Assembly: GCA_965221865.1 (NCBI GenBank)
Contig: OZ244918.1
Location: 1,702,816 to 1,766,815, forward strand
Source of the DNA: Candidatus Poriferisocius sp.
Lineage (GTDB): Bacteria > Actinomycetota > Acidimicrobiia > Acidimicrobiales > Bin134
Length of the DNA stretch: 64,000 nucleotides
Direction: 5' to 3'
Shown here: piece by piece, positions 2,488-51,861 of the stretch
How positions within the stretch are numbered: position 1 is the first letter of the stretch
Layout of the letters: each line of letters opens with the position of its first letter
Made by a program: the position numbers and the translations under genes
The notes under the pieces: model-generated
The model's database searches: none
What the model was told of the DNA's origin: nothing
What the model saw: the letters and a program-made list of their open reading frames with translations, nothing else

Positions 2488-2549
2488 CCTAGCAGGGCAG
2501 GCTCTTCAGCAAAATAATGCTAAAAAATGAGGAGTTCATTTGTGCTTTG

Positions 2550-3698
2550 GCAAGCTCTAGTGGTGGTCGCGACATAGTTGATTGTATATGGTTTGGGCTG
2601 TGTTCGGGTGGTGGAGTTTTCTGGGCATGTTGTTTGGTGAACTCCGTCGGTGGTCGCGACGGGTCGGCTATTATGGTCGGTTTGATGTTTCTGCGGCCTA
2701 TCGTTGGAGGGTTTTGTTGTGGCATAGTGTTTGGGTGTGTGGGGGCGCGCATGTTTTGAGGTGTTGTTACAGCAGGGTTTGAGTGATGCTGGGTTTGGGA
2801 AGTGTTTGGGTAGGAGTCGGGTAACGGTGTGGTGGGAACAGAAGCGTTTCGTTCAGGGCGCGTATCATGCTGAAACCGCTCAAAATGGGGCTGATGGGAA
2901 AGCGTTACGACCGAGGCTGTGTGAACTGGTTGTAGATGGTGAACTTGTTTAGCTGGTGAAAGATCGGTTTGGTGAGTGTTTATCGCTTCACGCTATTGCA
3001 GCGGAGTTACGTTGTTTGGGTTACCGGATTTGTGCCGAGATGATTTGCTGGGCTTGTTATGATTTTTCTAACCGTAGCGGTTTACTATCAAAATGTTGGA
3101 AACTGCTGCCTCGTGCTTGGCGGCGTAAACCACCTAGCCGCAGTTCGCAGGGTAGGTGCAGTGTTTTAGGTGATTGGTGTCGTATATGTGAGCGTCCCAG
3201 CGAAGCTGATAGCTGAGTTGAGCCTGGTCATTAGCAAGGCGATCTGATTATCACCCAAAAACCATCGCTCAGCTATAGCTACTTTAGCAGAACGCAAAAG
3301 CCGTCAAACCTTCAGTGTCAGCTTAGGTGACAGCTACGATGCTGTTAACACTGCTAACACCTGTCACCCAAGCACTAGCCCGGCAACTTGCACATATGGT
3401 GAAAACCCTCATCTGAGACCACCGCAGAGAAATGACACGGTTAGCTGACATAGAAAAAACCGTCGGTATCAAAGTTTACTTCTGTGAACCCCACTCACCA
3501 TGGCAACAACCCAACCAACAAACAAACCAACACCTATCTTACGACGCCCGCTACTCAAACACACCAACCTCAACACCACCAAACCCCTACCAGCAACCAT
3601 CAAAGACCATATCAACAACACACCCAAAAAACCCCACCACCCGAACACAACCCAAACCACACACAACCAACCATGTCACAACCACCACTAGAACTTGC
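2550..3698 (+). mobile_element. Degenerate IS30-family element, copy 2 (transposase pseudogene) with 85-bp terminal inverted repeat
   Basis: Contains N-terminal HTH-like LGRSRVTVWWEQKRF..AYHAETAQ, then the same landmarks as copy 1 (EPGH*QGDLI, VYFCEPHSPWQQ), with stops and frameshifts. 2550-2634 is the reverse complement of 3614-3698 (73/85 identical). Confidence 0.7.
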
Positions 3699-4029
3699 CT
3701 TATTTAGCAGTAATTTTTTGTCCCAGTTGCCAAACCCAATCAGGCGCATTTATAGCGTCATGGTCGCATAAAGCGTTAACTGCCATAGCGATCCGTGTCA
3801 GATCGTGGCGGCGCGGCGTGTGAAACGATGCCACCACCGATGTCGCTGCGGTGGTATTTTCATACTTATTACTCTATGAGCGTGATCTGTGTGCGATCAT
3901 TGCTTGCACAGTTCGCGAAGGTCAACCACACGACCACGCATATCGTTATTACGCATCAGCTCAGGAGTATCAGCAGCTGTGATAGTAGGAACAAACACCA
4001 CACTGACACAGGAGGCTCACCCAAACACG

Positions 4030-5868: not shown

Positions 5869-7176
5869 ATGCAGAAACTTGATCCGTGGGAAGAAGGACT
5901 CGCCAAATCTGCAAACAGTCCATTTACACCTGCTTTTGGAACTGCACCTACCACTATGGTTGGCAGGGACGACTTGATTCGATCCATAGCTAGTGGATTT
6001 CAAGACCGGGCAGGTTCCCCTGGGCATTCTCCACTTGTGTTTGGTGCTCGCGGGACTGGTAAAACGTCTTTACTTCACTCAATCTGCGAATCGGCTGCTA
6101 GAAGCGGGTGGCTAACGCTATCTCTGGATGCTGGCAGTCCAGGACTGTTGAAACGTGTTGATGCTGCTATTGAGTGGGCGGTACGCGAGTCTGGGCATCA
6201 ATCCCTTGAAGATATTTCTTCTGATTCTTTGTCTCGGCTAAACCATCTGCAATTTTTAGGTGTAGGAGCTGGGTGGGAGCCAAAAAGACGCGACACGAAC
6301 CCAGTCAACTACACAATCCGTGAGCGCTTAGCAAAACTAACAAAAGCGGTAGCTGCAAATGGTGGACGTGTGCTTATCACAGTAGATGAAATGCATAACA
6401 TTAGGCTCACGGAAGCGCGTCGGTTTTGTAACGATTTGCAACATATAACCAAAGGCGACGAGTTGCCTCTTTTATTTCTCGGAGCGGGTTTCCCAATGAT
6501 GAGAGAAGGGATACTTAAAGATAGTCGGCTCTCATTTTTTAGGCGTTCCGATCTTTACGATATTGCGGCACTTACTATCAATGACGCGCTTGAAGGGATA
6601 GAACAGCCGATATTAGAAGCAGGCGGGACGATCAGTGAAGAAGCATTACAGATCGCAGCAGAGGGTTCTGTTGGTAAATATCCATATATGCTTCAGCTGA
6701 TAGGGGATCACGCGTGGAAAGCGGCCGGAGCGCCTTTAGGTCGTATAGAGGTAAAGCACGCAGAGCGGGCAGTAGAGGCGGCTAGAAAAGAGTTTGACGA
6801 TAAAATATCAGCTCCTTCTTGGTCTGATTTATCTGACGCTGAGCAAGATTTCATGGCAGGTCTAGCTTCGCTGGGGGGAAAAGCCGAATCAGCTCAAGTA
6901 AGAACCGCTTCAGGTTTGATCCCACGCACTGCTAGAAGAATTCAACTGCGACTAACGATCGGTGGGTATATCACAGAAGATAGGGGTTTCTTGGAAATCA
7001 CCGATCTCGTTTCACGAGAATCGGTGTCAGCGTTCTTTTCCCCAGATTTACTTGAAAACAGGCAGAGCACAGCGCATGTTGCGGGGAAGCGCCAGTGTAA
7101 TAAATGGATGCCGCGTGCCCGACAACCTTGCGTGTTGGCATTGAATCATAAAGGACCATGCCGCTCTCATATTTAA
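5869..7176 (+). CDS. AAA/STAND-like NTPase with C-terminal wHTH-like region
   Basis: Walker A GARGTGKTSLL and Walker B LITVDEMH. 435 aa. Confidence 0.55.
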   Translation: MQKLDPWEEGLAKSANSPFTPAFGTAPTTMVGRDDLIRSIASGFQDRAGSPGHSPLVFGARGTGKTSLLHSICESAARSGWLTLSLDAGSPGLLKRVDAAIEWAVRESGHQSLEDISSDSLSRLNHLQFLGVGAGWEPKRRDTNPVNYTIRERLAKLTKAVAANGGRVLITVDEMHNIRLTEARRFCNDLQHITKGDELPLLFLGAGFPMMREGILKDSRLSFFRRSDLYDIAALTINDALEGIEQPILEAGGTISEEALQIAAEGSVGKYPYMLQLIGDHAWKAAGAPLGRIEVKHAERAVEAARKEFDDKISAPSWSDLSDAEQDFMAGLASLGGKAESAQVRTASGLIPRTARRIQLRLTIGGYITEDRGFLEITDLVSRESVSAFFSPDLLENRQSTAHVAGKRQCNKWMPRARQPCVLALNHKGPCRSHI

Positions 7177-7236
7177 TACACACCAGCCCTCAGCACAGCA
7201 TTACCGCCACGGATACACTCTTTGACCTGCATGTGA

Positions 7237-7941
7237 TGGGATCCCCCCCCCTTAGACGACATCAGCCGAACCGATATCACCCAAGTAGAAGACGTGCAAC
7301 GCGACCCTGTCGGCGTCCGTAGACTGCTAACTTCGTTGGGGCGTAACACCGGCGCCAAAGCATCTTTGCGAACACTGTCTCAAGACGCTTCTAAGGATCG
7401 AGATGTGGCTATGCATCCCCGAACTATTAAGGCATACTTACAAGCGCTTGAGCGCTTGTTTGTGGTTGAAGATTTGCTGGCATGGCAACCGCATCTTCGG
7501 TCGCGAATAGCTTTACGCACAACTCCAGTTCGCCATTTCGTATGCCCCTCTCTCGCTGTTGTCGCTTTGCGTACCAACAGCACTCGCCTGCGAGCCGATT
7601 TGAGGTTCTTCGGTTGTCTCTTTGAATCGCTTGTTGTGCGTGATCTTCGCATCTACTCACAGATTGAGGGCTGCCTTCTCTCCCACTATCGAGACGAATA
7701 CGGCTTAGAAGTAGATGTGATTTTAGAAAGAGCCTACGGAGAGTGGGCTGCATTCGAAATCAAACTAGGAAGCCAGGCAGTCATCATGGAAGGAATCGAG
7801 TCGCTTCGCATGCTAAAAGATCGCGTTAACACCAAACGTATAGGGGAACCCAGCAAGCTAGCAGTAATCACTGCAACAGGCATTGGTGGGGAGTTGCCTG
7901 ACAACATAGCAGTCATACCCATCACAGCCCTCGGCCCCTGA
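7237..7941 (+). pseudogene. DUF4143-domain ATPase, 5'-truncated C-terminal fragment
   Basis: The region DI..V.RDP..VRRLL..L..N.G...S...L......HPRTIKAYL.ALE.LF resembles the DUF4143 C-terminal half of AAA_14 proteins. The N-terminal ATPase half is absent. The frame opens just after a stop at 7234-7236 and runs through a C9 tract (7243-7251); the first start codon is GTG 7294. Confidence 0.5.
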
Positions 7942-8216: not shown

Positions 8217-8705
8217 TTATTGCCCCAAGACAAACCGCGCTTTTTCTTCCCGCAACATCTCGTAGGGGTTTATAAATGTGACCCCGACTCCACGACAAGC
8301 TTCGGGAATTTTGATCTTTTTCAACGACTCGCTAGATGCCTCATGCGTCACCACAATACAGTCATTAGCATGGGCTTGGGCTACTAGGTAATAGTCGGTA
8401 CTTTGTAAAAATTCGGAGACTCCAGCTGATGTGTATTTTTGGCTGTTTGCCCACCCGCTAACCAAACTTAAGCTGTCACTGATCAAGTCGCTTTCAAGAG
8501 GAAAAAGGTCAGGTCTCCGCCCAGCCCATTCGGCGAGTTCATCCTCCTTAGCTTGAATTCCATCGCCTACTTTTTTGATGCTGAAAACTTTGCCCGCTTC
8601 ATTTTGCTGATCCAGCCAATCCCAGAATGCTGGGCAGAATTCGAATCCGTAATGCAGGTTCTTTGCCTGAATAAAGACGTTGGTATCTAGCAGATAAGTT
8701 GTCAT
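8217..8705 (-). CDS. DUF4411 (PIN-like) family protein
   Basis: N-terminus YLLDTNVFIQAKNLHYGFEFCPAFWDWL is typical of DUF4411. Its start overlaps the stop of the upstream ImmA gene. Confidence 0.7.
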   Translation of the reverse strand: MTTYLLDTNVFIQAKNLHYGFEFCPAFWDWLDQQNEAGKVFSIKKVGDGIQAKEDELAEWAGRRPDLFPLESDLISDSLSLVSGWANSQKYTSAGVSEFLQSTDYYLVAQAHANDCIVVTHEASSESLKKIKIPEACRGVGVTFINPYEMLREEKARFVLGQ

Positions 8706-9847
8706 ATCACTTCAAGCTGCTTGCAGAGTTTGTCGAAGGTGGATTGTTTTTTGAGTCCAAGCATATTGAAGGCATCTGTGTAGAGTGTTTGCCCTTCAAG
8801 GGTGTTAGCGATCACTGAACGTGTGAATTGTTTGGAGACTCTTGTAAGCAGTGTGTTGCAGAAGTTGCCTCCGCTATTTTTTGTGGGTAACAAGTCCATC
8901 ACTCGCGCTAGTTCAGTTTGATATGTGTTTTGGTAGCTATTCCAGTCAAGATATCTCGCTTCATGCACTTGATGTAACACTACAAGAGTGCTTGATTTGA
9001 AATGATGTGCTAGCCGATCTAGCTCATCAATTAAGGGTGCATTGACATCAAAAGCTGTACGTAACTCTTGTAATGGCACTAGAACTTCTGCGGCAACGCT
9101 ATTGCACCACCGTTCTATCTCATTTGTGGTTCGCGCTCTGAGGTTGAAATCTGACAAAGCGCTCTCACCAAGCCAGATATGGGCTAGTTCATGTACAAGA
9201 GTGAATGTTTGTGCTGCCTGCGTGTCCGCTCTGTTGATAAATACCAGCGGTGCCACTGAGTCTACTAGTGCAAAACCCCTGAACTCTTCAGGATTCAACT
9301 TGCGGTGGGTGTTGCTGCCAACAACACCACTCACCATGACTAGCACACCGATTGCCTCAGCTTGATCACGTAGGTAGGTAAATGTACCCGCCCAACCTGC
9401 TTCTCGCTTTTCCGATCCAAAAGAAAGTGCTTCTGTAATCTCTGCACCTGCTGCAACGGGATCAACTTCAGTAGTAAGTGAACCAACTTGAGACACCTCA
9501 TTGAGCCCGATAGTACGAGCGTAATCCCGGTACCAGTCCTGTCGTTGTTGACATTGGTAAATAGTGTCTAGGAGGTCCGGGCTCGGACGAACAGCTGAGC
9601 GGTCGCCGATGGTACGAAAGTCGGGAATGGGTATGTCTTCTTTTGGTGGTACTGCCAAGAAGAGGTAGCCAACCGGCGTGCGTGTTGCCCTTGCAAAGTT
9701 TTCCAGCTGCTTCAAAGTTGGGTTCACCTCACCAGACTCCCACTGATACAACTTAGGAAACTTTTGAATTAGCAAGTCCGCGTCAAGGCCAGAGCGCGCG
9801 CGTGCCCATGCCAGCAAAGCGGGCTCAACTGTAACCTGAACTGTCAC
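8702..9847 (-). CDS. HTH (XRE-like) + ImmA/IrrE zinc metallopeptidase
   Basis: N-terminal HTH-like segment and the HEXXH motif HELAHIWLG. The usual partner gene of DUF4411. Confidence 0.75.
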   Translation of the reverse strand: MTVQVTVEPALLAWARARSGLDADLLIQKFPKLYQWESGEVNPTLKQLENFARATRTPVGYLFLAVPPKEDIPIPDFRTIGDRSAVRPSPDLLDTIYQCQQRQDWYRDYARTIGLNEVSQVGSLTTEVDPVAAGAEITEALSFGSEKREAGWAGTFTYLRDQAEAIGVLVMVSGVVGSNTHRKLNPEEFRGFALVDSVAPLVFINRADTQAAQTFTLVHELAHIWLGESALSDFNLRARTTNEIERWCNSVAAEVLVPLQELRTAFDVNAPLIDELDRLAHHFKSSTLVVLHQVHEARYLDWNSYQNTYQTELARVMDLLPTKNSGGNFCNTLLTRVSKQFTRSVIANTLEGQTLYTDAFNMLGLKKQSTFDKLCKQLEVI

Positions 9848-9867
9848 GCTCGTTTAGCCTGTATTGC
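9787..9867. repeat. 81-bp direct repeat, copy 1 (covers the real 5' end of the ImmA gene)
   Basis: Near-identical to 10611-10691, with a few mismatches clustered in the first 20 nt. Confidence 0.9.
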
Positions 9868-9883
9868 TAATACTCATTTTCTC

Positions 9884-10300
9884 TTAGTTGGGCGAAGTGG
9901 TTTGCTTGGCTCCAGGGGAAACAATTGCTACTCCATGATTGGCCGCTGCGTGTGCCATTCTAGAGTCATAGGTAACAATGCCTTGAAGTTCATGGCCGAA
10001 TTCAAGTGCTGTTGTTAAATGAATTGCGTCTAGGGAACGTAGCGAGGGCGGGTCAAGCAAACCTGCTAGTTTGAATATGCGCTCCCCTAATCGGATAAGT
10101 TGGATTGCGCCAAGTACTTCCTTAGCTAACTTAATGTGTTCAGAGGATTGTCTGTGAGCTGCTCTGAGAAGTTCTGTTTGCACAAGGTCCCCGGCTATCA
10201 AGATTCGTTCTTTTTGCGTGAGCCAAGATTTAAGTGCGTTTGTCTCTGGTTCTGCGGTGATCAGTGTCACAAGGGCAGATGTATCAATGTAAAACGGCAT
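9884..10300 (-). CDS. vapC: Type II toxin VapC (PIN domain)
   Basis: MPFYIDTSAL.., with acidic PIN residues (IDTS, QTEL, SLDAIHL, TYD). ATG at 10300 lies 1 nt after the antitoxin stop. The longer ORF-track start (10360) overlaps the antitoxin. Confidence 0.85.
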   Translation of the reverse strand: MPFYIDTSALVTLITAEPETNALKSWLTQKERILIAGDLVQTELLRAAHRQSSEHIKLAKEVLGAIQLIRLGERIFKLAGLLDPPSLRSLDAIHLTTALEFGHELQGIVTYDSRMAHAAANHGVAIVSPGAKQTTSPN

Positions 10301-10301
10301 C

Positions 10302-10574
10302 TTAGCAGCGTTCATCTTCGCGCATTTCAGCAAGTGTTTTTGACATACTCGGACCTGCAATAGGATCGGATAACTCTGCTATGCTTCTTTGAATAGGTGT
10401 TGTCAAACCGGCATCGATTAGTTCTTGTAAGCGAGACTTTGGGATTGGTGTCAACAGAGCCACTGGATGCCCGCGACTGGTTATTGTGACGATTTCACCT
10501 GCTGCTGCAGTAGCCACCACTGCTGATGCGTTTTGTTTGAGCGACCTAATGCCCACTTCAGTCATGTGCATCAT
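10302..10574 (-). CDS. Type II antitoxin, Phd/YefM family
   Basis: MTEVGIRSLKQNASAVV...GEIVTITSRGHPVALL is typical of Phd/YefM. The start is uncertain (ATG 10574/10571/10565 or TTG 10598). Confidence 0.8.
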   Translation of the reverse strand: MMHMTEVGIRSLKQNASAVVATAAAGEIVTITSRGHPVALLTPIPKSRLQELIDAGLTTPIQRSIAELSDPIAGPSMSKTLAEMREDERC

Positions 10575-19876: not shown

Positions 19877-20365
19877 GTGCGGGCTACCTATCGTGATGCT
19901 TATGCGTTAGCGTATCGACTTACTCGCAACGCTGCCGATGCTAGCGATGTGGTGCAAGATGCCTATGTACGTGCATACCGAGCTATTCGCCGGTTTAGGG
20001 GTGAATCTAGCTTTTCTACATGGATGTATCGGATTGTTAGCAACTGCGCGTCTACGCATTTAAGCCGGCGTTCGCGTTATCGTACCGATGAACTTAAAGA
20101 TGATGCTGCGGTCTTCGACATCAGCCCCGAGCAAGACCCAACTCTGCGTGCCGAGGCAGTGTTGTTGCATCAGCATTTAGACCATGCCATTCGGACTCTT
20201 CCTGAGCGGCTACGACAAGTAGTTGTATTACGACATTTGCATGATTTCAGCCACCGGGAGATTGCATCTCAGCTCGGTATTACGACAACGGCAGCAAAGG
20301 TGCGACTGCACCGGGCTCGGCAACGACTCCAAGAGCTGCTGCATCTAGCAACCGAGGTTGAATGA
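19877..20365 (+). CDS. ECF-type RNA polymerase sigma-70 factor (start probably further upstream)
   Basis: Region 2 (DVVQDAYVRAY..FRGES.FSTWMYRIV.N) and region 4 (L..RQVVVLRH....S..EIA..LGIT..A.KVRLHRAR). Confidence 0.85.
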   Translation: MRATYRDAYALAYRLTRNAADASDVVQDAYVRAYRAIRRFRGESSFSTWMYRIVSNCASTHLSRRSRYRTDELKDDAAVFDISPEQDPTLRAEAVLLHQHLDHAIRTLPERLRQVVVLRHLHDFSHREIASQLGITTTAAKVRLHRARQRLQELLHLATEVE

Positions 20366-40587: not shown

Positions 40588-41589
40588 CTATACATTCACG
40601 GGGACTTCGTTGGGAAAGTGGCAGGCAACAAAGTGGTCGGGGGCGACTTCTCGAAGTTCGGGCTCGTCGGTTGCACAAACATCTTGCACCTTTTCGCAGC
40701 GAGTGCGGAAACGACATCCCGAAGGTGGGCTTATGGGTGACGGTAACTCTCCAGTGATTTGGCGGTCTGGTATTGGTTGTTCAGGATCAGGCTCAGGTAT
40801 GGATGCCAGCAGTACTTCGGTGTAGGGATGAGATTGATATCCGTAGAGGCTGTCGGGATTGGCTACCTCACATATTTTTCCGAGGTACATCACAACTACT
40901 CTGTCGGACACGTTTTTGACAACAGCTAAGTCGTGGGCGATAAACACCAAAGTGAGCTTGTAGCGTTCTTTCATGTCCTCTAAAAGATTCAATATCTGTG
41001 CTTGCACCGATACATCTAACGCTGATACAGGCTCATCGCAGATAATCATTTTGGGGTCTAGTACGAGAGCTCGAGCAATGCAGATACGCTGACATTGTCC
41101 CCCAGAAAACTGATGCGGTTTGCGGTCTGCAACAGCTCTAGGGTCTAGCCCAACAGCTGCGAGCATCTCTTGTACTTTTTGCTCTGCGGTGTCTCCAGAA
41201 TCGTTATGCCAGATAGACAGCCCTTCAGCCACAATGTCATGTACGTTGCGACGAGGATTGAGTGAGGAAATTGGATCTTGGAATATCATCTGCATACGGG
41301 TACGACTATGGCGCAACTCTTGTTTGGAAAGCTTGGTCATTTCTGTGCCGTCAAACATCACCGAACCTGACGTGGGGGGAGGCAGTTGCATGATGGCTCG
41401 TCCAGTGGTGGATTTACCACAGCCAGATTCCCCTACTACTCCCAGAGTTTCACCTTCAAACACATCAAAGCTGATGTTAGAAACAGCGTGTACTATTTTT
41501 TTACGACCAGCAGGAAATTCCACGGTGAGGTTTTTTACTGACAACAGCGCATCGCTGCCTCTCAGGTGAACTGTTCCAGTACCAGCCAT
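40588..41589 (-). CDS. Oligopeptide/dipeptide ABC transporter ATP-binding protein (OppF/DppF-like)
   Basis: Walker A GESGCGKST, LSGGQCQR, and a C-terminal Cys-rich oligo_HPY tail. ATG 41589 is preferred over TTG 41631. Confidence 0.85.
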   Translation of the reverse strand: MAGTGTVHLRGSDALLSVKNLTVEFPAGRKKIVHAVSNISFDVFEGETLGVVGESGCGKSTTGRAIMQLPPPTSGSVMFDGTEMTKLSKQELRHSRTRMQMIFQDPISSLNPRRNVHDIVAEGLSIWHNDSGDTAEQKVQEMLAAVGLDPRAVADRKPHQFSGGQCQRICIARALVLDPKMIICDEPVSALDVSVQAQILNLLEDMKERYKLTLVFIAHDLAVVKNVSDRVVVMYLGKICEVANPDSLYGYQSHPYTEVLLASIPEPDPEQPIPDRQITGELPSPISPPSGCRFRTRCEKVQDVCATDEPELREVAPDHFVACHFPNEVPVNV

Positions 41590-41614
41590 TGCTTTGTGAT
41601 CCTTTGGCTTATTT

Positions 41615-42694
41615 TTAGCTAGATTTTGCAACCGCTGCTGCGGTCAGATCTAGCCCAGCAGCGGTTACTCCTGCTGTTTGGTTATGGATGTCGGCCTGTT
41701 GGTTTTCAGGTGACCCTACAGGGAACAAGCAGGCTTGGTGGTGCCCAACTCTGCTGGTTTCAAATAAGACAGGCTCATCGGTTAAGCACTGGGTTTGAGC
41801 ATAGCGACAGCGTGGGGCAAAGCGGCATCCCACAAACTTTCGGGTCATATCGGGTGGTCGCCCGCTGATAGCCGAGAGCCTTGTGTGGCTTTGGTCTTCC
41901 ATGCGGGGTATAGATTTGAAAAGCGCCTGTGTGTAAGGATGGTTCATGTTGGCGAACAAAGTGTGGGTGTCGGCAGTTTCAACCATCCTGCCCGCGTACA
42001 TAACACCAATGCGTTGCGCTCGGCCAGCAACCACACCTAAATCATGGGTAATCAAGATCATGGCCATATCTAATTCTTGCTGAATAGACGACAGCAAGTC
42101 TAGAATTTGTTTTTGAACGGTCACATCAAGCGCAGTTGTAGGCTCATCTGCGATCAGCAGCTTGGGGTTGCAGGCCAGAGCAATGGCGATGGTAACCCGT
42201 TGGCGCATACCTCCTGAAAGCTGATGCGGATATTCTCCTAATCTTTTGCGAGGTTCGGGAATACCTACTTGCACCATAAGTTCTAAAGCTCGTTGTGTGG
42301 CTTTTTGCTTAGACATTTTTAAGTGAAAGCGTAAGGATTCGGTAATTTGAACTCCGATTTTTTTCACCGGGTTTAGTGAAGTCATTGGGTCTTGAAAGAC
42401 CATTGCCATCTGCGTACCCCAAAAGTGTTTGGCTTCTGCACGGTTTAGCTGCGAGATGTCCTGACCATCAAAATACACTTTAGAAGATTCGGGTACTATG
42501 GCGTTAGTTGTCAAAATGTTCATGATAGACCGCACCAGAACGGACTTGCCAGAACCTGATTCACCTACGATCCCAATCGTTTCACCTTTGTTCAAAGAGA
42601 AACTCACTCCATCTACGGCCTTGAGTATGCCGCGAGGCGTGTTAAAGTAGGTTTTAAGGTTATTAATCTCTAATAGAGGTTGGTCGCCTGGCAT
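41615..42694 (-). CDS. Oligopeptide/dipeptide ABC transporter ATP-binding protein (OppD/DppD-like)
   Basis: [29 protein letters not shown]. Confidence 0.88.
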
Positions 42695-42737: not shown

Positions 42738-43349
42738 TTAGCTAAGTCGTGATTGTTTGCGTGCTGCTGGCGCTGGATCCTCATCATCGGACTCCTCTTT
42801 GTCGCGATCATAAACGATTACCGTAGTACCAGCTAGCCAATCTGACAATGTGCGGCGACGTTTATCAAACGGTGATGTCAGGTAGTTGGCTGCATTTATC
42901 AGCAAACCGCCTAGCACAACTGGGGGTACAATCCAGCTAGCACCGCCCAACAACCAGTGCAAACCACAGCGTCCTAAGCTCATATGGCTGCCATCTGCTG
43001 TGCGAACTGCCCGCAGTTTCATGAAGTCCATAGCTGGAGTTTGGCCTTCGTTCCAGCGAAGAAACACCACCGTATATATCAAGTGCAAAAAAATATAGAC
43101 CAAAATGGCAGCACTGTAGCGTCCCCAGGGTTCTGGTTGCCACCGGGTAGAAACGCTGTCCATAAATCCCAGCACCTGAACAATCGTTAACATCCACTGT
43201 AAAAAAAACACTGTAAAAGCATCAATGAGGCGCGCTAGGGCTTTACGCCAGACTGGGGCAACAGGATAGGAAATCCCCTGTGGGCCGCTGACCAATAGCA
43301 CGCTTTCAGATATTTGAGGTGCTTGAGAAGATGTGCTGGTAATAGTCAC
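42738..43349 (-). CDS. RDD family membrane protein
   Basis: R..A.LID motif plus TM helices. Confidence 0.6.
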   Translation of the reverse strand: MTITSTSSQAPQISESVLLVSGPQGISYPVAPVWRKALARLIDAFTVFFLQWMLTIVQVLGFMDSVSTRWQPEPWGRYSAAILVYIFLHLIYTVVFLRWNEGQTPAMDFMKLRAVRTADGSHMSLGRCGLHWLLGGASWIVPPVVLGGLLINAANYLTSPFDKRRRTLSDWLAGTTVIVYDRDKEESDDEDPAPAARKQSRLS

Positions 43350-43696
43350 AGCAACTGCAGAACCTCCCTGTATGGACGGGCTATGATTGCTTTGTTACCT
43401 CGTACTGCTACCGGTCGTTGCATCAGCTTAGGATGTTCTAGTAGTAGTTGCACTACTGCTGCTGCACTTTGGTAATCGTTAATATTGAGGCCAAGTTTTT
43501 TAAAGTGGCTGTCTTGGCGTACCAACTCCGCTGGTTCTGTAGGAAGCAAGTTTACCAAGCGTTCTAGTTCTTGTTGGTTGAGTGGGGTTTTCATGTAGTA
43601 CACAACATCGAACTCGATGCTTTGCTCCTCGAGAACCTCGAGTGCGTTTTTGGAACTGGTTCAACCAGGATTGTGATAGATGGTTATTTTGGTCAT
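43346..43696 (-). CDS. ArsC/YffB-family thiol reductase with in-frame TGA at the catalytic Cys position (selenoprotein candidate or pseudogene)
   Basis: The minus strand reads MTKITIYHNPG-TGA-TSSKNALEVLEEQSIEFDVVYYMKTPL.., colinear with E. coli ArsC ITIYHNPAC(12)GTSRNTL. TGA is at 43661-43663. Total length is 116 codons, typical of the family. Confidence 0.6.
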
Positions 43697-43860
43697 GCCC
43701 TAAAGACTACACCCAATTGACAGACTTGCTAAAGAGCAGTGTATTTACAAATAGGGGGGGGGCAGCTCACTGTTGAGTTTTTTCTTATGATTATGGTGGT
43801 GTTGTTGGTTGGGGGTGGGGTTGTGGTATGCTTTTTGGATGCGTTTTTTCGGGTTTTTAG

Positions 43861-46800
43861 TTGGTGGTGTTGTGTGTGGGTTTGCGCGTCTTGTTGCTGT
43901 TGTGGGGGGGGGGGGGGGCAGGTTTGGTGAGGTGTCTGAGGTTGGGTGGTTGGTTGCGTAAGGTTTTGCGCGTGCGGGGGTTTGTTGCTGCGGCACTGGC
44001 CGCGGTGTTGTTTGGGGTGTTGTTTGGGGTGTTGGCGCCTGGTTCTGTTGGGGCGCAAACTTCGTCTGTGGTGTCTTCTACTGGTGATAGTGCGGTGGAG
44101 GTAGGCGAGGGTTCCGTGGCTGTTGTTGGGTTTAGTGTGTCGCCTCCGGTGGATTCGGAGGTGTGGCTTCGGTTTTGTTTTGAGAGTTCTTTAGCTGATT
44201 CTAATTTTTCTAATCTGCAGACTCAAATTGGTAATATGAACGTGTCTTTGGATAATAATGGTTGTTTTGATGGCCAGACGGTAACTGTTACCGTGGCCGG
44301 GGCGACGACTCAGTCAGCTACTATTAGGTTTCAGCCTTTGACTAATACGGTGGATGATCTTGATGAGGTTGTTACTGTTACGGTGAGTGAGGATCCTGAT
44401 AATCCGTTGCCTGATGGTGTAAGTATCGATGCTGAGGCTGATTCGGTGTCGAGGAAGATTGTGGATGAAGATCCGACGGTGGTGTCGTTGGCTCGTTCGG
44501 GTTCGGGGGCGATCACCGAAGGCGGGTCAGCGGAGTTAACGGTGAGTTTGGGTCGTGAGCTTGTTGCGGGTGAGATGGTGGGTGTGCCGTTGGCTATTAG
44601 CGGTACGAATGTGACGACCGCGGACTATGATTTGGTGTTGAAGGAAGGACAGGGGCTCAACACTGGCGTTGAGTTGTCGGGTGTGTCAACAACCGAACCG
44701 CATTTGAGTTTTTCTGGTGCTGGCGCGCAGACAGCAACTTTGCTGCTGACAGCGTTGCTAAATAATGATACGGGTGCTGAAACAGTAACAGTCGCGTTGG
44801 GGCCTGATGATGCGACTGCTAACGGTTTTGATCGCCCAGCGTTAGAGACGAACGTAAGTGGCGGTGTTAACCGGTCAAGCACGCAGAATAGTGTGAATGT
44901 GACAGTGAACGATCCTGCTGCGCCTGCTGCGCCTAGGTTATCGTTGGCTCAAGCTGGTGATGGGCAGGTGTATTTGTCGTGGGCTAATCCGGTTAATAGT
45001 TTGATTACTGGTTATGAGTTTCAACGCCGCCCAAGCGGCGGTGAGTGGGGTTCAGCGAAAGGGATTGTTGGTAGTAACGCTAATACCATTACTTATGTGG
45101 TAACCGGTCTCACTAATGACACGGCTTACACTTTCCGGGTGCGCGCTGTGTCTGGTAATACGGATGGGGCGTGGTCGGATGCGTCTGCTGCTGTGACACC
45201 AACGTCTGCTTCTACTGCTAGACCGGCTGTTCCAACGAATTTGGCGGCTGTTGCCGGTGACTCACAAGTAGTGTTAACGTGGGATAACCCGGGTAACACG
45301 GCGATTACTAGTTATGAGGTTCGTCAAAGAACTGGGTCCGCTGATTGGGGTACGTGGGCTGCTATTGCTTCTAGCAGCGCTACTACTGTTACCCATACTG
45401 TTACCGGGTTAACTAACGGTGTGACATATCAGTTTCAAGTACGTGCCGCTACTGGAAACCAAGACGCGTTGAAAAGTTTAACGCCAACAGATTTTTTCGC
45501 TGAAGCTACCCCCAGACCGGCACCACCAACGTTGCTGGTGTCGTCAAGGTCTGCGTTGCGGGTGCCTGAGGGGACGACAACTTTAGGGTATAATATTGTG
45601 TTGTCCCGGGCGTTGACGGCTGATGATCCTGCTGTGTTGGAGTTTGAGATAGCTGTTTCTGGCACTGCTACGCGTGGTACGGATTACTCGTTTTCGTCTG
45701 ATTCTAATTTGAGTGGCACAGGTGTGAGTGTGGTTAACACTGCGGGTAAGGGTAACCCTGTGATTCGTATTGACCGGGCCGCGTTCGGTCTCACTCGAAG
45801 AGGTAGCACTGCTGGGTTGATTATCAACGTGAATCCTGATAGTGATACGGAATCGACTGATGAGACGATTGTACTAACAACACCAGGCACCACCCTCACC
45901 CACATGATTTATGATGCGCCTGCGTCTGTTGAAGCTAAGTTCGCTTTAGCTTCTTCTACTTACGCTGAAGGTTTCGGTCCTTTAACGGTTGTTGTTCAAT
46001 TGAGCGCGTTAACAGGCCGGGATTTGGTGTTCCCCATATTATACCCGTCGGCTACTACAACAGCGGTAGCGAATGTTGATTACACACCGGTTAACAGTTT
46101 CACGGTGAAAGCTAATGGGCAGTTAACTCATTCTTTGGTTATTCCTTATGTTGATAATGATGTTGATGAGCCTAATAAAACGTTGTCTGTGATGTTGGGT
46201 GCTGCGCCTTCGGGTGCTACTAAGGCCACAACAGACACTATGACGGTGACTATTGCTGATAATGATGCAACAACAGTCGCTTTAGCGGTGGCAGATACTA
46301 CGTTGCGTGAAGACACTGACACTCGTTTGACTGTCACTTTGAGTCGTGATTTAGTGGCTGGTGAAATAGTGCGGGTGCCTTTGACTGTAAGCGGAACTGG
46401 TGTGACAGCTGATGATTACACGTTGGAGTTGGCTTCGGATGCGGGGTTGAACACGGGTGTTAGGTTGAACATTGCCTCTCCTTTTAGTGCTGCTTCACCG
46501 CAGGTAGTGTTCACAGGTAGTAGCGGCACCGAACAGGTCGCTACTTTGGTGTTGAGCGCTTCCTATGATGCTACCTCTGAGGGTGCGGAGACGTTGCAGG
46601 TTGGTTTCGGTGCGGTTACAAGCAATTTAGCTCACCCGGATCGGTCTACGTTTACTGCTGCTGGTACTACTGCGGGTGCCCCGGTTGATGTGACAGTGAA
46701 TAATTTGGATGCCCCAGCAGCGCCTACAGGACTCGCCGCGACTGCGGGGGACACGCAAGTGTCGCTGGTTTGGGATGATCCGGGTAATAATTTGATTACT

Positions 46801-49800
46801 GGGTACCAGTTTCGTAGAGGTTCAGGTGACCCGTTTAGTTGGGGTACGCATAAAGGTGTTGCTAATAGTGATGCGTCTACTACGTCTTATGTGGTGACGT
46901 CTTTGACTAATAGCACGGAGTACAGTTTTCAGGTACGCGCTTTAATTAACAGTGTGGAAGGTGCTTGGTCTAGCACAGTTAAAGCTACTCCTACGTCTAG
47001 TTCTACTGCTCCTCCGGCTGCTCCTTCAAACGTCACCGCCACAGCTGGTGACACACAAGTAGTATTAACGTGGGCTAACCCAGGTAACGCGGCTATTACC
47101 GGCTATGAGGTGCGCCAGCGTGCCGGGTCTTCTGGTAGTTGGGGTTCGTGGGCTGCTATTGCTTCAAGCAGCGCTACTACTGTTACCCACACTGCAACCG
47201 GGTTAACTAACGGCATTGAGTATAGTTTTGAGGTGCGCGCGGTTGCGGGCACAACACAAGGCGCAGCGTCGGTGACAGTAACCGCGACGCCGATGATTGA
47301 ACCGCCTATTTTGAATCTTTTTCGGCGTCCCCCAGCTAGGTTGCCTGAAGGTACAATAACCGATACCAATTTTGATTTCAGGTTGTCCCGGGCGTTGACT
47401 TCAGATGATCCTGCTTTAGTGGATTTGGAAGTAGCAGTTTCGGGTACTGCTACGCGTAACGTTGATTATCAGTTTTTTAGTAGTGGAACGGTTGCGGGTG
47501 TGTCTGTGTTGAACACAGCCGGTACAGGTAATCTTGTGCTTCGCATTAATCGGGCGACGTTCGGTACTACCAGTCAGGCCGTGTCGGTGAAGTTGGGTAT
47601 AAGAGTTCTGCCAGACAACACGGTGGAGTCGTCTGATGAGACGATTATTCTCACACCAGCGGGTGGTAGCGCGCGTACTTTTAGTGTTTATGATGCGCCA
47701 GCGTCGGTGGAAGTCAATGTTGAACAAAGCAGGCTTCGTGCTTCAACTCTTGAGAACCGTTCTTTGCATTTAACCCTTGTTTTAGACGCTGCTACTGGTA
47801 AGGATTTAGTGTTTCCTGTTTCGTATTCTGGTACAGCAACATCAGGGTCAGATTACACACCGGTTGATAGTTTCACGGTGAAAGCTAACGGGCGGTTAAC
47901 TCATTCTTTGGTTATTCCTTATGTTGATGATGATGTTGATGAGACTAACGAAACGGTGACAGTAATGTTAGGCGACGCCCCGTCTGGTGCTACTAAAGGT
48001 AGTACAGACACTGCGACTTTCACGATTGTTGATAACGATGCGACAACAGTGACAATGAAGCTTGCGGGTAGGGCGGGTATTGAAGAAAACACTTCCACTC
48101 AGCTGACAGTGTCATTAAGCCGCGATTTGGTAACAGGTGAGGAGGTTTGGGTGCCGTTGACGGTGTCGGGTACTGGTGTCACGGCAGATGATTACACGTT
48201 TAGTTTAGCTTCAGGTACAGGGTTGAACACTGGTGTCACGTTGAACACTACCGCTCCGTACAGCGCTGCGTTACCGCAGGTTTTGATTACTGGTGGTTCC
48301 GCTGTTGAGCGGTTTGCTACTTTGACTCTCAGCGCAGCTGATGATAGTACAGCAGAGAACACAGAAACATTGTCAATTGGTTACGGTAGTGTGGAAAGTA
48401 ATCTTGACCGGTTGGATGCATCTATTTTTTCTACAGGTGGTACTACTACTGCTGGTGCCCCGGTCACAGTTCAGATCAGCGATGAAGCTACTGGACCAAC
48501 GTTGCTGTTCACCAGGACAGGAACAGGGACACGGCTTCCTGAGGGCACAACTCTTGTGGAACACAATTTTGTGTTGTCTCGTCGTTTAAATGGCACTGAT
48601 CCTCAAGTACTTGAATACGAAATCGGGTTGGGTGGCACCGCTACTCGGGGTGCTGATTACACGTTAAGGTTTGTTTCGCAAGCACGCCACTCTGATGGTG
48701 TCACCGTCATTAACACTGCTGGTAGCAGTAATCCTGTTTTGCGTATCAACAGAACAGTGTTTGGCAGCAGGTTAACCAGGGGTACTGTTGGTTTAGTTTT
48801 GAGTGTAACAGCCGATAACACTGTTGAATCAGCTGCTGAAACAATTACTTTAACAACATCAGGCGGCAGCCTGGCTTACACGATTTATGATGCGCCTGCG
48901 TCTGTTGAAGCCAAGTTCACACGAGCCGCTTACGGGTATCAAGAAGGCAATAGAGTCTTTACAGTTGTGATTCAATTAAACGAACCAACAGGCAAAGATT
49001 TAGTGTTCCCCTTATCGTACCCGCAGCCTACAACAGCGGTATCAGGGGTTGATTACACACCGGTTGATAGTTACACTGTGAAAGCTAACGGGGAGTTAAA
49101 TCACGCAATCTCATTCCTATACAATGATAATAACCTTGATGAACTAACTAAAACATTGACTGTGATGTTAGGCGCAGCACCTGATGGTGTTACTAAAGGC
49201 ACCCCAGACACCGCAACAGTGACTATCTATGATAATACTCCCACAGCAGTTACTTTAGCCGTAAACGGTTCGTCTTCAATTGAAGAAGACACTAGTACTC
49301 AGCTCACTGTGACTTTGGGTCGTGATCTAGTGGCCGGTGAGATAGTGCGGGTGCCTTTGACTGTGAGCGGTACGGGTGTGACAGCCGATGATTACACGTT
49401 GGAGTTGGCTTCGGATGCGGGTGTGAATACTGGTGTAACTTTGAACACTGCTAACCCGTATAGTGCTGCTGAACCCCAAATAGTGTTCACTGGGGGCAGT
49501 AGTGTTGAGCGGGTAGCTACTTTAGTGTTAAAAGCGGTTGCTGATAATGATGATACTGAAACTTCTGAAACTATGACTATTAGTTTCGGTTCGGTTACAA
49601 GCAACTTAGATCAAATAAACCCGTCTGTTTTCGATGGGAGTGGTACTGCTGCTGGTGAGCCGGTGGAAATACTATTAGGCGCAGCTGTTTTGACTTTGTC
49701 TGTTGATAGTGGCACTGCTAATCCCACGGAGGTGGTTGAAGGCGAGTTGTTGATGATTACTGTTACGCGTAGCCAAGCTAACCGGACTGGTGCTGATATT

Positions 49801-51861
49801 AATGTTCCGTTCCGTTTGTTGATCGATGATGTAGGTTTAGTGGGTTTAGCTGATTTCACTATTCACAATGGTGATACTACTAGTTCAGCTAGTTTGAAAG
49901 CTCCTAACGACCGGTATGATGAACCAACTAAACAAGCATGGACAGCGGAATTGAACACTGCGTTGCTACCCGAAAATCATGTTGCTGATACATCTCGGGT
50001 GGCATTTACTGTTACAGATAATGATCCGACCACGGTTACTCTCAACGGGCTTGCAGGTGATATCGCTGAGGACACGGTGAAACGATTTACAATCACCCTT
50101 AACCGCGGGTTAGTAGCCGGTGAAACCTTGCCTGTACCTTTGGTTTTTGGTGGTACTGCTACCCGCAACGCGGATTACACTACTGCTTGCCCTGATCCTT
50201 TGCCGGTGGGAATACAATGCAATAATCTTGATACCGCTGAGACGCCGACTGTAACATTCACTGGCCCTCAACAAGGTGTAACAGCCCGTTCGGTTACTTT
50301 AACAGTCACCGCCCAAGCAGACCTATACACTGAAAACGACGAAACTCTGCGCATCGCTTTAGCACCCCTAAACGCTGATTCTGGTGACGGTTTAGGCGGC
50401 GGCGCGGTTGCTGTCAACGATTTTGATGCGTTCAACATCACAGACACCACCGACCCAGCAACCGCAATACAACCACCCCCAGAAGACCCTGAAGAACCTG
50501 TTGATCCTGAACCTGAAACAGTACCAACAACGCCCATATATCAAGTACCCACCAGCCTCATAGCTGATGTGCGCGGTTACGCTGCTGAAACTCACAATGG
50601 TGCCGCGCATGTGCGCCGTTGGCAACAAGTCTTGTTAGCGTTCGGTGACACCGTTAATGGGTTCACCGGCGCTCCGATCACTCTCACCGAAGCGCGAACC
50701 TATGCGCAACAGTTCTGGAGTGTTCGCTGGGATCCGGTAGTTGAAGCACTACAACAACTCGCCAACAACCCCCAACCCCAACCCACCGCAACACCTCAAC
50801 CCACTCCAACATCCACACCAACACCATCTGTTTACACCGTGCCAGCCAGCCTCATAGCTGATGTGCGCGGTTACGCTGCTGAAACTCACAATGGTGCCGC
50901 GCACGTGCGCCGTTGGCAAAGAGTCTTGCTCGCGTTCGGTGAAGACGTGCCAGGCTTCACTGGCACCCCGATCACCCTCACTCAAGCGCGAACCTATGCG
51001 CAACAGTTCTGGGGCAGCCGCTGGGATCCTGTAGTTGAAGCATTGCAACAACTCGCCAACAACCCGCCACCCCAACCTAACGACCCGTCGCCTAACAATC
51101 CGCCGCCTAACAATCCTTCAGTTGACCCACAGCCAAAACCTGTGCTGCCCAGAATCGGTGTTACAGCACCCACCGATATCACCGAAGGCCAAACCGCCGA
51201 TTTCACATTCACCGCTGTGTCCGCCCCCGCAACCCCGCTCACTGTCACTGTCAACATAATCACAACAGGTGATTATGGCATCACCGCTGGCAGCCGCACC
51301 GTGACCATAGACACCAACGGCACCGCCACACTGTCACTAGCTACCATTGGTGACAGCGTTGACGAACCAAACGGCACTATCACCGTCACACTTACCACCA
51401 GTAACACCTATAATGTTGACTCTGCTGCTGCGACTGCGACGGTTACTATCGCAGACGACGACGCACCAGTACAAACCACAAGCACACCTATTATTTCTAT
51501 AGCCGACCAAACCATCACCGAAGGCACCTCCTGTCGTACCCCCGCCCCCTGGTCCTGCCTCAACTTATACCCTGTCACTGTCACTTTGAACCAACCCCAC
51601 CACCAAAGCGTGTGGGTCTCATTCACCATCACCCAACTCGGACAAGGAACAGGCTATGCCACCGCGAACCAAGACTTCGCCGCACGCGACCGAAGAAGCT
51701 TCATCATCGCCGCAGGCCAAACCACCAAAAACATATACGTCAACATCAAAGACGACAACACCAAAGAACCCGACGAAACCTTCCAAATCACCCTACACAA
51801 CCCCCTCCGCGGACAAATCGGCGACGGACAAGCCACCATCACCATCAAAGACAACGACTAA
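43861..51861 (+). CDS. Giant secreted Calx-beta-like/FN3 repeat protein (2666 aa as listed; likely start GTG 43972)
   Basis: Signal-peptide-like RGFVAAALAAVLFGVLFGVLAPGSVGA-QT. Contains two FN3 pairs, many Calx-beta-like modules (..DNDATTV.., VD.DVDEPN.TL.V.L), three super-repeats and two 98-aa C-terminal modules. An AAGG lies 8 nt before 43972. Confidence 0.85.
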   Translation: MVVLCVGLRVLLLLWGGGGAGLVRCLRLGGWLRKVLRVRGFVAAALAAVLFGVLFGVLAPGSVGAQTSSVVSSTGDSAVEVGEGSVAVVGFSVSPPVDSEVWLRFCFESSLADSNFSNLQTQIGNMNVSLDNNGCFDGQTVTVTVAGATTQSATIRFQPLTNTVDDLDEVVTVTVSEDPDNPLPDGVSIDAEADSVSRKIVDEDPTVVSLARSGSGAITEGGSAELTVSLGRELVAGEMVGVPLAISGTNVTTADYDLVLKEGQGLNTGVELSGVSTTEPHLSFSGAGAQTATLLLTALLNNDTGAETVTVALGPDDATANGFDRPALETNVSGGVNRSSTQNSVNVTVNDPAAPAAPRLSLAQAGDGQVYLSWANPVNSLITGYEFQRRPSGGEWGSAKGIVGSNANTITYVVTGLTNDTAYTFRVRAVSGNTDGAWSDASAAVTPTSASTARPAVPTNLAAVAGDSQVVLTWDNPGNTAITSYEVRQRTGSADWGTWAAIASSSATTVTHTVTGLTNGVTYQFQVRAATGNQDALKSLTPTDFFAEATPRPAPPTLLVSSRSALRVPEGTTTLGYNIVLSRALTADDPAVLEFEIAVSGTATRGTDYSFSSDSNLSGTGVSVVNTAGKGNPVIRIDRAAFGLTRRGSTAGLIINVNPDSDTESTDETIVLTTPGTTLTHMIYDAPASVEAKFALASSTYAEGFGPLTVVVQLSALTGRDLVFPILYPSATTTAVANVDYTPVNSFTVKANGQLTHSLVIPYVDNDVDEPNKTLSVMLGAAPSGATKATTDTMTVTIADNDATTVALAVADTTLREDTDTRLTVTLSRDLVAGEIVRVPLTVSGTGVTADDYTLELASDAGLNTGVRLNIASPFSAASPQVVFTGSSGTEQVATLVLSASYDATSEGAETLQVGFGAVTSNLAHPDRSTFTAAGTTAGAPVDVTVNNLDAPAAPTGLAATAGDTQVSLVWDDPGNNLITGYQFRRGSGDPFSWGTHKGVANSDASTTSYVVTSLTNSTEYSFQVRALINSVEGAWSSTVKATPTSSSTAPPAAPSNVTATAGDTQVVLTWANPGNAAITGYEVRQRAGSSGSWGSWAAIASSSATTVTHTATGLTNGIEYSFEVRAVAGTTQGAASVTVTATPMIEPPILNLFRRPPARLPEGTITDTNFDFRLSRALTSDDPALVDLEVAVSGTATRNVDYQFFSSGTVAGVSVLNTAGTGNLVLRINRATFGTTSQAVSVKLGIRVLPDNTVESSDETIILTPAGGSARTFSVYDAPASVEVNVEQSRLRASTLENRSLHLTLVLDAATGKDLVFPVSYSGTATSGSDYTPVDSFTVKANGRLTHSLVIPYVDDDVDETNETVTVMLGDAPSGATKGSTDTATFTIVDNDATTVTMKLAGRAGIEENTSTQLTVSLSRDLVTGEEVWVPLTVSGTGVTADDYTFSLASGTGLNTGVTLNTTAPYSAALPQVLITGGSAVERFATLTLSAADDSTAENTETLSIGYGSVESNLDRLDASIFSTGGTTTAGAPVTVQISDEATGPTLLFTRTGTGTRLPEGTTLVEHNFVLSRRLNGTDPQVLEYEIGLGGTATRGADYTLRFVSQARHSDGVTVINTAGSSNPVLRINRTVFGSRLTRGTVGLVLSVTADNTVESAAETITLTTSGGSLAYTIYDAPASVEAKFTRAAYGYQEGNRVFTVVIQLNEPTGKDLVFPLSYPQPTTAVSGVDYTPVDSYTVKANGELNHAISFLYNDNNLDELTKTLTVMLGAAPDGVTKGTPDTATVTIYDNTPTAVTLAVNGSSSIEEDTSTQLTVTLGRDLVAGEIVRVPLTVSGTGVTADDYTLELASDAGVNTGVTLNTANPYSAAEPQIVFTGGSSVERVATLVLKAVADNDDTETSETMTISFGSVTSNLDQINPSVFDGSGTAAGEPVEILLGAAVLTLSVDSGTANPTEVVEGELLMITVTRSQANRTGADINVPFRLLIDDVGLVGLADFTIHNGDTTSSASLKAPNDRYDEPTKQAWTAELNTALLPENHVADTSRVAFTVTDNDPTTVTLNGLAGDIAEDTVKRFTITLNRGLVAGETLPVPLVFGGTATRNADYTTACPDPLPVGIQCNNLDTAETPTVTFTGPQQGVTARSVTLTVTAQADLYTENDETLRIALAPLNADSGDGLGGGAVAVNDFDAFNITDTTDPATAIQPPPEDPEEPVDPEPETVPTTPIYQVPTSLIADVRGYAAETHNGAAHVRRWQQVLLAFGDTVNGFTGAPITLTEARTYAQQFWSVRWDPVVEALQQLANNPQPQPTATPQPTPTSTPTPSVYTVPASLIADVRGYAAETHNGAAHVRRWQRVLLAFGEDVPGFTGTPITLTQARTYAQQFWGSRWDPVVEALQQLANNPPPQPNDPSPNNPPPNNPSVDPQPKPVLPRIGVTAPTDITEGQTADFTFTAVSAPATPLTVTVNIITTGDYGITAGSRTVTIDTNGTATLSLATIGDSVDEPNGTITVTLTTSNTYNVDSAAATATVTIADDDAPVQTTSTPIISIADQTITEGTSCRTPAPWSCLNLYPVTVTLNQPHHQSVWVSFTITQLGQGTGYATANQDFAARDRRSFIIAAGQTTKNIYVNIKDDNTKEPDETFQITLHNPLRGQIGDGQATITIKDND
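43904..43918 (+). repeat. Homopolymeric G15 tract in the giant gene 1 leader / extreme 5' end
   Basis: Counted directly. Lies 54 nt upstream of GTG 43972, where a signal-peptide-like sequence starts. A G9 run is at 43754-43762. Confidence 0.95.

Follow-up and report, generated by a model that had tools for sequence, protein, structure and literature searches.

The locus described here raises the question of whether a TGA that lies within the reading frame of a redox-enzyme gene is a stop codon or is read as selenocysteine (Sec). The gene is found in a stretch of 64,000 nucleotides from Candidatus Poriferisocius sp. (contig OZ244918.1), hereafter called the window, where it occupies positions 43696..43346 of the minus strand and comprises 116 codons plus a stop, from an ATG at 43696..43694 to a terminator TGA at 43348..43346. 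Its translation reads MTKITIYHNPG*TSSKNALEVLEEQSIEF...LQLL*, the sole internal TGA being codon 12 (43663..43661), after which the product continues as TSSKNALEVLEEQSIEFDVVYYMKTPLNQQ...IARPYREVLQLL*. The analysis reported below indicates that the gene very probably does encode Sec, in other words that it specifies a full ArsC-family reductase of the thioredoxin fold in which UGA12 is decoded as selenocysteine (U12). Sec insertion itself, the identity of the SelB-binding hairpin, the substrate and the reductant are points that I infer from the sequence.

A TGA at the catalytic position of an ArsC-family gene

The family to which the product belongs was determined by domain and structure matching, for which U was replaced by C at codon 12. 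The protein matches the Pfam ArsC family PF03960 with 46.9 bits (cutoff 24, E 3.4e-12), and its best-scoring model is the NCBIfam TIGR00014, 'arsenate reductase (glutaredoxin)', which is covered from 1 to 114 of its 114 positions. Among solved structures, it matches 3RDW (5e-17), 3F0I (9e-16), 2MU0 and 1I9D (3e-14). In a HMMER alignment with the E. coli R773 ArsC (PDB 1I9D, 1JZW), residues 1-116 of the window protein fall on residues 1-116 of R773 ArsC, and the TGA falls on the catalytic Cys12. The initial annotation had placed the TGA at the catalytic cysteine of a gene colinear with E. coli ArsC and had described a frame intact to 116 codons; the alignment and the translation bear out both statements. 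Arg60, Arg94 and Arg107 of the window protein align with the three catalytic arginines of 1I9D, and they are invariant across the five full-length Sec forms that were aligned. The window protein departs from R773 ArsC in having Sec rather than Cys, and in being 116 rather than 141 residues long, without the C-terminal ~25 residues.

The best structure matches are YfgD-like short ArsC proteins (3RDW, a 'putative arsenate reductase', and 3F0I) of ~119 residues, whose motif YHNPxCSKSR is shared by the closest Cys homologues of the window protein. These proteins contain Cys, unlike the window protein, and their physiological substrate is likewise not established. Within the window gene the motif is HNPG-U-TSS, that is, U12-T13-S14-S15, of the UxxS type. 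Identity as an Spx/MgsR regulator was considered and rejected: the motif is UxxS and not CxxC, TIGR01617 gives 52.7 bits against a cutoff of 75, and Spx models give 26-45 bits against cutoffs of 123-159. The Arsenate reductase 2 or 'arsenate reductase-like' selenoproteins (cd03032, NF041106) share the ArsC/Spx superfamily fold with the window protein, as do Spx and MgsR, and differ from it in having a U/CxxC motif.

A Sec-containing ArsC family is already on record. 'Arsenate reductase' (COG1393) was described in 2005 as a new selenoprotein family of the Sargasso Sea, on the basis of 14 sequences with a predicted selenocysteine insertion sequence (SECIS) element (Zhang, Fomenko and Gladyshev, PMC1088965), and the ArsC/UxxS selenoprotein family appears again in Zhang and Gladyshev 2008 (PMC2398784). 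Current reviews list it as TIGR00014/UxxS (PMC9312934, PMC13188914). The statement in the initial annotation that ArsC-like selenoproteins had been reported from marine metagenomes is confirmed by this literature (PMC1088965, PMC2398784, PMC13188914). Because it matches PF03960, has TIGR00014 as its best model and carries the motif U-T-S-S, the window gene fits the catalogued ArsC 1 selenoprotein family (pfam03960/COG1393/TIGR00014, UxxS) on every sequence criterion and would be a member of it. It resembles the known members in its Pfam and TIGRFAM family, in the U-x-x-S motif with Sec in place of the catalytic Cys, in the stem-loop just 3' of the UGA and in the abundance of Cys homologues. 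It differs from them in lying on an Acidimicrobiia-like chromosome of ~2.9 Mb rather than on a marine read, and in being annotated as an 82-aa fragment.

TGA has its ordinary meaning elsewhere in the window, as had been noted for the sigma-factor gene. Of the 43 window open reading frames (ORFs) checked, 12 end in TGA; the sigma-factor gene (19877..20365) and the ArsC gene are two of these. With a G+C content of ~50% and TGA used as an ordinary terminator, nothing points to a reassigned code. A scan of the window found no second TGA-interrupted ORF with a redox motif.

Conservation of the TGA among orthologues

One trivial explanation is that the TGA is a sequencing or assembly error and that the true codon is TGC or TGT. 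All that speaks for it is the prior consideration that single-base errors occur. A second contig from ENA (L001) is 99.0% identical to the window over 3.6 kb, and its ArsC gene is 100% identical, so that the gene is unchanged in a sequence differing at 1% of flanking positions, which excludes a base-calling error. The same TGA is moreover present in the same codon in more than 60 distinct, independently assembled orthologues from several phyla. The probability of an error is accordingly negligible.

A scan of one genome per species, with a search pattern that favoured the Sec-type N-terminus, returned 80 loci. About 66 of the 80 species-representative loci carry YHNPG-TGA and nine carry Cys (YHNPxCSKSR), a ratio of Sec to Cys that is meaningless given the bias of the pattern and from which no frequency can be claimed. 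Among these GTDB representatives, the best locus is 71% identical. According to record titles, the TGA forms belong to Acidimicrobiia/Acidimicrobiales (many of them 'Candidatus Poriferisocius'), Candidatus Binatia, Gammaproteobacteria/Pseudomonadales, Myxococcota, Deltaproteobacteria-labelled metagenome-assembled genomes (MAGs), an Opitutales MAG and a Microthrix MAG. Cys occupies the position of the TGA in homologues P0002-P0014 and in 77 Cys-form loci. The initial annotation had called for a search for TGA-containing and Cys-containing orthologues, and both kinds were thus found; additional disruptions in them, which it had named as evidence of a pseudogene, were not, since none of 60 distinct N-terminal segments of 34 codons contains an extra stop or a frameshift.

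The record names of the TGA-form MAGs (L010-L089) point to holobionts of sponges and other marine invertebrates (Ca. Poriferisocius, Ca. Binatia, bins SB06xx, IRC1, CAR2, RHO1); an enrichment is not established. The spread of TGA forms among MAGs labelled sponge-associated is in keeping with the ArsC selenoprotein family's known marine bias. Searches of the literature for Poriferisocius and for selenoproteins of sponge symbionts brought up no relevant paper. The wide occurrence of TGA forms in MAGs of sponge-associated lineages is only mildly new.

A more serious alternative is that the gene is a pseudogene or a truncated gene, in which the TGA is a premature stop and either nothing functional or only an 82-aa fragment starting at Met35 is made. 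Automated gene calling gave exactly this product: the public gene call at the locus is the 82-aa C-terminal fragment P0001, and plain ORF finding likewise recovers only an 85-aa ORF 3' of the TGA. In addition, no Sec machinery was found in the 64-kb window, the part of the host genome that was searched. The fragment starting at Met35 would, however, be devoid of the catalytic residue and of the first beta-alpha unit of the fold. Moreover, the 34 codons that precede Met35, including the 11 that precede the TGA, behave as coding sequence. In the 60 distinct segments, nucleotide diversity at codon positions 1, 2 and 3 is 0.26, 0.13 and 0.49 upstream of the TGA and 0.20, 0.14 and 0.41 downstream of it, a periodicity on both sides that indicates a translated sequence rather than an untranslated leader before Met35. 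The 'truncated' homologues found in databases (P0049, from an Acidimicrobiia MAG; P0075; P0108; and P0113/P0114, from Myxococcota) all have the same in-frame TGA upstream, in the shared motif YHNPG-TGA-G(S/K/Q)SR. Since, as described below, selection also acts on the hairpin-forming synonymous sites of the window gene itself, decay or truncation of this gene is very improbable.

Two hairpins downstream of the UGA

In bacteria, Sec is inserted by a pathway comprising SelA, SelB, SelC and SelD, and the SECIS element lies within the coding sequence, directly 3' of the UGA (PMC1088965, PMC13188914). The mRNA of the window gene can form two hairpins in this region. Hairpin 1 (H1, 43645..43624, minus strand) consists of CUCGAG (43642-43637), a GUU loop (43636-43634) and CUCGAG (43633-43628), extended across an internal loop by the outer pairs G43645-C43624 and C43644-G43625. 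Its core (43642..43628) is 18 nt past the UGA, its loop begins 24 nt past the UGA, and its minimum free energy (MFE) is -10.1 kcal/mol. This is the hairpin that the initial annotation had described, with its two further G-C pairs and at a distance judged to be in the bacterial SECIS range; it is present as described. Hairpin 2 (H2, 43621..43604, minus strand), which was not in that annotation, is formed by AGCAUCG (43621-43615), an AGUU loop (43614-43611) and CGAUGUU (43610-43604). It has 7 bp, a loop that begins 46 nt past the UGA and an MFE of -7.6 kcal/mol, and its sequence, GTCGAGTTCGAC, has no repeats elsewhere in the window above chance. The energies were obtained by region-limited MFE parsing, which replaced a strict contiguous-stem scan that underestimates them.

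The bacterial SECIS (bSECIS) model requires a loop of 3-9 nt, a stem of 4-16 bp, a distance of 16-37 nt between UGA and loop and an MFE of at most -7.5 kcal/mol, with a G at loop position 1 or 2 that is usually followed by G or U (PMC13188914). With a 3-nt GUU loop, a 6-bp upper stem, a distance of 24 nt and -10.1 kcal/mol, H1 of the window gene agrees on all four counts with this bSECISearch consensus, whose archetype is the SECIS of E. coli fdhF.

One may object that hairpins arise here as a by-product of the protein sequence, the codons for LE-x-LE and V/I-E-F-D being palindromic, and that they play no role in decoding. CUCGAG is indeed self-complementary, and some Cys homologues with V-D-F-D form a weaker H2. 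To take the protein into account, the stability of the hairpins was compared with that of synonymous recodings in which the amino acids were fixed and the codons redrawn from window usage; this null was chosen because a dinucleotide shuffle, which gave a z of only -1.4, is the wrong null for a coding sequence. Recodings as stable as the window hairpins amounted to 0.2% for H1, 0.3% for H2 and less than 0.1% for both together. The codons themselves are unusual. Leu19 and Leu22, in H1, are both encoded by CTC, the rarest Leu codon of the window (53/706, 7.5%). GAG is used for each of the four Glu residues encoded within the structure, whereas the genomic GAG:GAA ratio is 50:50 and GAA is used for four of the six Glu residues that come later in the gene. 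Phe29 is encoded by TTC, which has a usage of 37%.

The hairpins were also compared in 50 distinct Sec forms and 77 distinct Cys forms, the latter set having been enlarged by a metagenome scan (G+C 0.63 and 0.60, respectively). Stability differs between the two: for H1, MFE is -13.0 kcal/mol in Sec forms and -7.1 kcal/mol in Cys forms, and z against synonymous recoding is -2.17 versus -0.35 (Mann-Whitney p 2e-13 to 1e-14), while for H2 the corresponding values are -10.6 versus -4.6 kcal/mol and -2.19 versus -0.65 (p 3e-18 to 2e-12). A smaller sequence set gave the same contrast. Within the family, a z of about -2.2 is thus a property of the Sec forms, and H1 and H2, being more stable than synonymous recodings and more stable than in Cys forms, are selected RNA features tied to the UGA. 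The absence of conserved structure after the TGA, which had been named in advance as grounds for giving up the Sec interpretation, is not what was observed: structure is conserved, and it is specific to TGA forms.

The two hairpins are conserved in different ways. The register and the sequence of H1 vary between clades: it reads GCGCGCUCGAG-AUC-CUCGAGUCGCGC in the Poriferisocius group, GCGCAAU-CGACAU-AUUGCGC in gammaproteobacterial MAGs and GUGCUGG-AGAU-CCUGCAC in others, and a G is found at loop position 1 or 2 in only 6 of 52 Sec forms. By contrast, H2 keeps one register throughout the 50 aligned Sec sequences, the only helix to do so, and it alone emerges from their alignment-wide consensus fold. 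It shows compensatory changes from GC to AU, including the AUC...GAU of the window gene, and from CG to UA. Its loop is N-G-U-N in 49 of 52 Sec forms versus 2 of 77 Cys forms; the loop types are AGUU (47 sequences) and CGUG (4) in the former, and mostly ACUU, AGCC and the like in the latter. The Glu28 codon contributes the loop G as its wobble base; this synonymous site is nonetheless invariant, with GAG in 62 of 62 distinct genes versus 70% elsewhere in the same genes. Similarly, the wobble base of the Phe29 codon forms the closing C, with TTC in 63 of 63 versus 69%. Taken with the recoding results, these observations make it highly improbable that the hairpins merely reflect the protein sequence.

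The likening of H1 to a bacterial SECIS element thus stands for the window gene, where H1 fits the consensus, and does not extend to the family, in which the conserved G-containing loop is on H2, 46 nt past the UGA and outside the 16-37 nt interval. The SelB-binding hairpin of the window gene may be either H1 or H2. One possibility, which I regard as rather doubtful, is that the ArsC(UxxS) family uses a non-canonical two-hairpin SECIS in which the loop recognized by SelB is the N-G-U-N of H2, at 46 nt, while H1, serving as a compact spacer or as a pause element, brings H2 near the ribosome. The Microthrix MAG (CAYFLT010000027.1, L087:1534-1599) carries the TGA form without H2, and at the position of H1 it has a textbook SECIS, CCGUGGC-GGUC-GCCACGG, 23 nt past the UGA. 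The occurrence of a G-containing loop on H1 in a few lineages (GUU in the window gene, GGUC in the Microthrix MAG lacking H2) would suggest that the SECIS function can move between neighbouring hairpins. Relative to the literature, the Sec-specific H2, its conserved G-U loop and the non-canonical spacing are only mildly new.

Decoding, function and genomic setting

How would the UGA be decoded? At UGA12, the ribosome would encounter a complex of SelB, GTP and Sec-tRNA(Sec) recruited by the mRNA structure immediately 3', namely the two adjacent hairpins between +17 and +60 nt, and Sec would be inserted in place of termination. H1, which starts 16 nt past the UGA, could stay folded with the UGA in the A site, and the two ends of a hairpin being adjacent, H2 would begin effectively at the base of H1, so that the two may act as one unit. 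No comparable structure follows the second TGA, at codon 117, which would direct normal termination.

A conserved UGA followed by a conserved structure cannot by itself identify the amino acid that is delivered, and other tRNA species are mentioned in connection with UGA recoding at downstream SECIS elements (PMC13582414). UGA12 might hence be recoded to something other than Sec, either to Cys by a tRNA-Sec-like tRNA in a SECIS/SelB-like-dependent manner, which has been reported in some bacteria, or to Trp or Cys by near-cognate read-through. Cys at a UGA would bring no gain over the UGC codon, which close relatives use, and Trp at the position of the catalytic nucleophile would inactivate the enzyme. 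Furthermore, the pairing of Sec with Cys at a redox-active nucleophile is what typically marks a selenoprotein, and ArsC has counted among the selenoprotein families since 2005. Recoding to another amino acid is consequently improbable, and decoding of UGA12 as Sec is the reading retained here.

As to function, the product is most likely a selenol-based reductase of arsenate, or of a related oxyanion or thiol, of the single-nucleophile UxxS type, because Sec12 together with Arg60, Arg94 and Arg107 reproduces the active-site constellation of R773 ArsC. Sec12 would take the place of the Cys12 that attacks arsenate, next to the arginine triad; the enzyme would need an external low-molecular-weight thiol and a glutaredoxin-like partner for its regeneration. 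This assignment is held more loosely than that of Sec, and arsenate reduction in particular is held loosely because the TIGR00014 score is below threshold, the nearest structures are YfgD-like 'putative' reductases and the gene, unlike that of R773 ArsC, lies outside an ars operon.

Several observations weigh against the picture drawn so far. The score with TIGR00014 is 96.9 bits, just below the equivalog cutoff of 106.05, and exact functional equivalence to that family is not assured. Neither the window nor the orthologous loci contain ars genes (arsR, arsB/ACR3, arsA). The window, which is the part of the ~2.9-Mb chromosome that was searched, contains none of selA, selB, selD and tRNA-Sec: its five tRNAs are ordinary ones (ARAGORN, Rfam), and a Pfam scan of 30 unassigned window ORFs revealed no SelA, SelB, SelD or AIRS domain. 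No Rfam SECIS model matched, either in a permissive search of 43540-43720 or in a gathering-threshold search of the whole window; the sole permissive match in 43540-43720 was a group-II-intron model with E 0.73, attributable to chance. The hairpins of the window gene are among the weakest of the family, at the -10.1 and -7.6 kcal/mol given above. Finally, fixed-register covariation is weak, most pairs being simply conserved and the register of H1 shifting between clades: the covariation score is 0.079 versus 0.057 for shuffled alignments in clade A, and is indistinguishable from shuffles in clade B. It is for this reason that the argument relies on the register-free thermodynamic tests, namely synonymous recoding and the comparison of Sec with Cys forms.

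With respect to the machinery, the hairpins and the reading frame are still under selection in the window gene, which argues, indirectly, that the Sec-decoding trait is active in the host genome.

Downstream of the ArsC gene lies a gene for an RDD-family membrane protein (42738..43349, minus strand), identified from the ORF list and from gene calls and Pfam matches in the 99%-identical contig. The RDD gene and the ArsC gene overlap by 4 nt (GTGA, 43346-43349), the GTG start of the former running into the terminator TGA of the latter, and are therefore probably co-transcribed. The ArsC gene therefore holds two TGAs, the putatively recoded one at codon 12 and the terminating one, which is within the translational-coupling overlap. 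The RDD gene is followed by two genes for DppD/F-like ABC ATPases, at 41615..42694 and then at 40588..41631. Synteny with the window is seen in two other loci, L002 and L003, where the ArsC gene is followed by the RDD gene (in L003 only) and then by the two ABC ATPase genes.

The other neighbour of the ArsC gene in the window is a divergent gene for a giant protein. Its ORF, on the plus strand at 43861-51861, has a TTG start and encodes 2666 aa, while the gene is called at 3236 aa in the ENA contig L001; from ~44482 on, the two are only ~82% identical, and the protein appears to be strain-variable.

Other features of the window are mentioned for completeness. An inverted repeat of 86 nt (2549-2634 and 3614-3699), whose arms are 86% complementary and 979 nt apart, lies within A/C-rich low-complexity DNA and flanks short ORFs, one of which (3432..3707) ends like an IS30-family transposase (...VYFCEPHSPWQQ). 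There is no ORF of at least 100 aa between 2406 and 4165, and the 2549-3699 region looks like a decayed insertion sequence. A long A/C-rich tract covering 59615-60283 and 60131-60805 gives, when translated, P/T/H/Q-rich low-complexity sequence from one strand and G/V/L/W-rich sequence from the other. No Pfam family matches over 59615-60805, and the tract resembles in composition those at 2489-2752 and 3432-3771. On the minus strand, 8217-10360 holds a trio of genes encoding DUF4411 (8217..8705), IrrE/Peptidase_M78 (8702..9847) and PIN-domain (9884..10360) proteins, with AAA_16 and DUF4143 ORFs (5869..7941) upstream of it. The trio resembles a small islet of the toxin-antitoxin or defence-like kind beside the tRNA, ribosomal-protein and rpoBC region.

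None of these findings will surprise a selenoprotein specialist. Their main consequence is for annotation: where the public gene call lacks the active site, as do the equally truncated calls of the orthologues examined, the corrected one would restore a full-length redox enzyme. For the family, the two hairpins and the position of the G-U loop bear on the spacing rules of bacterial SECIS elements. For the organism, the window gene would imply a Sec-decoding trait in its ~2.9-Mb Acidimicrobiia-like genome.

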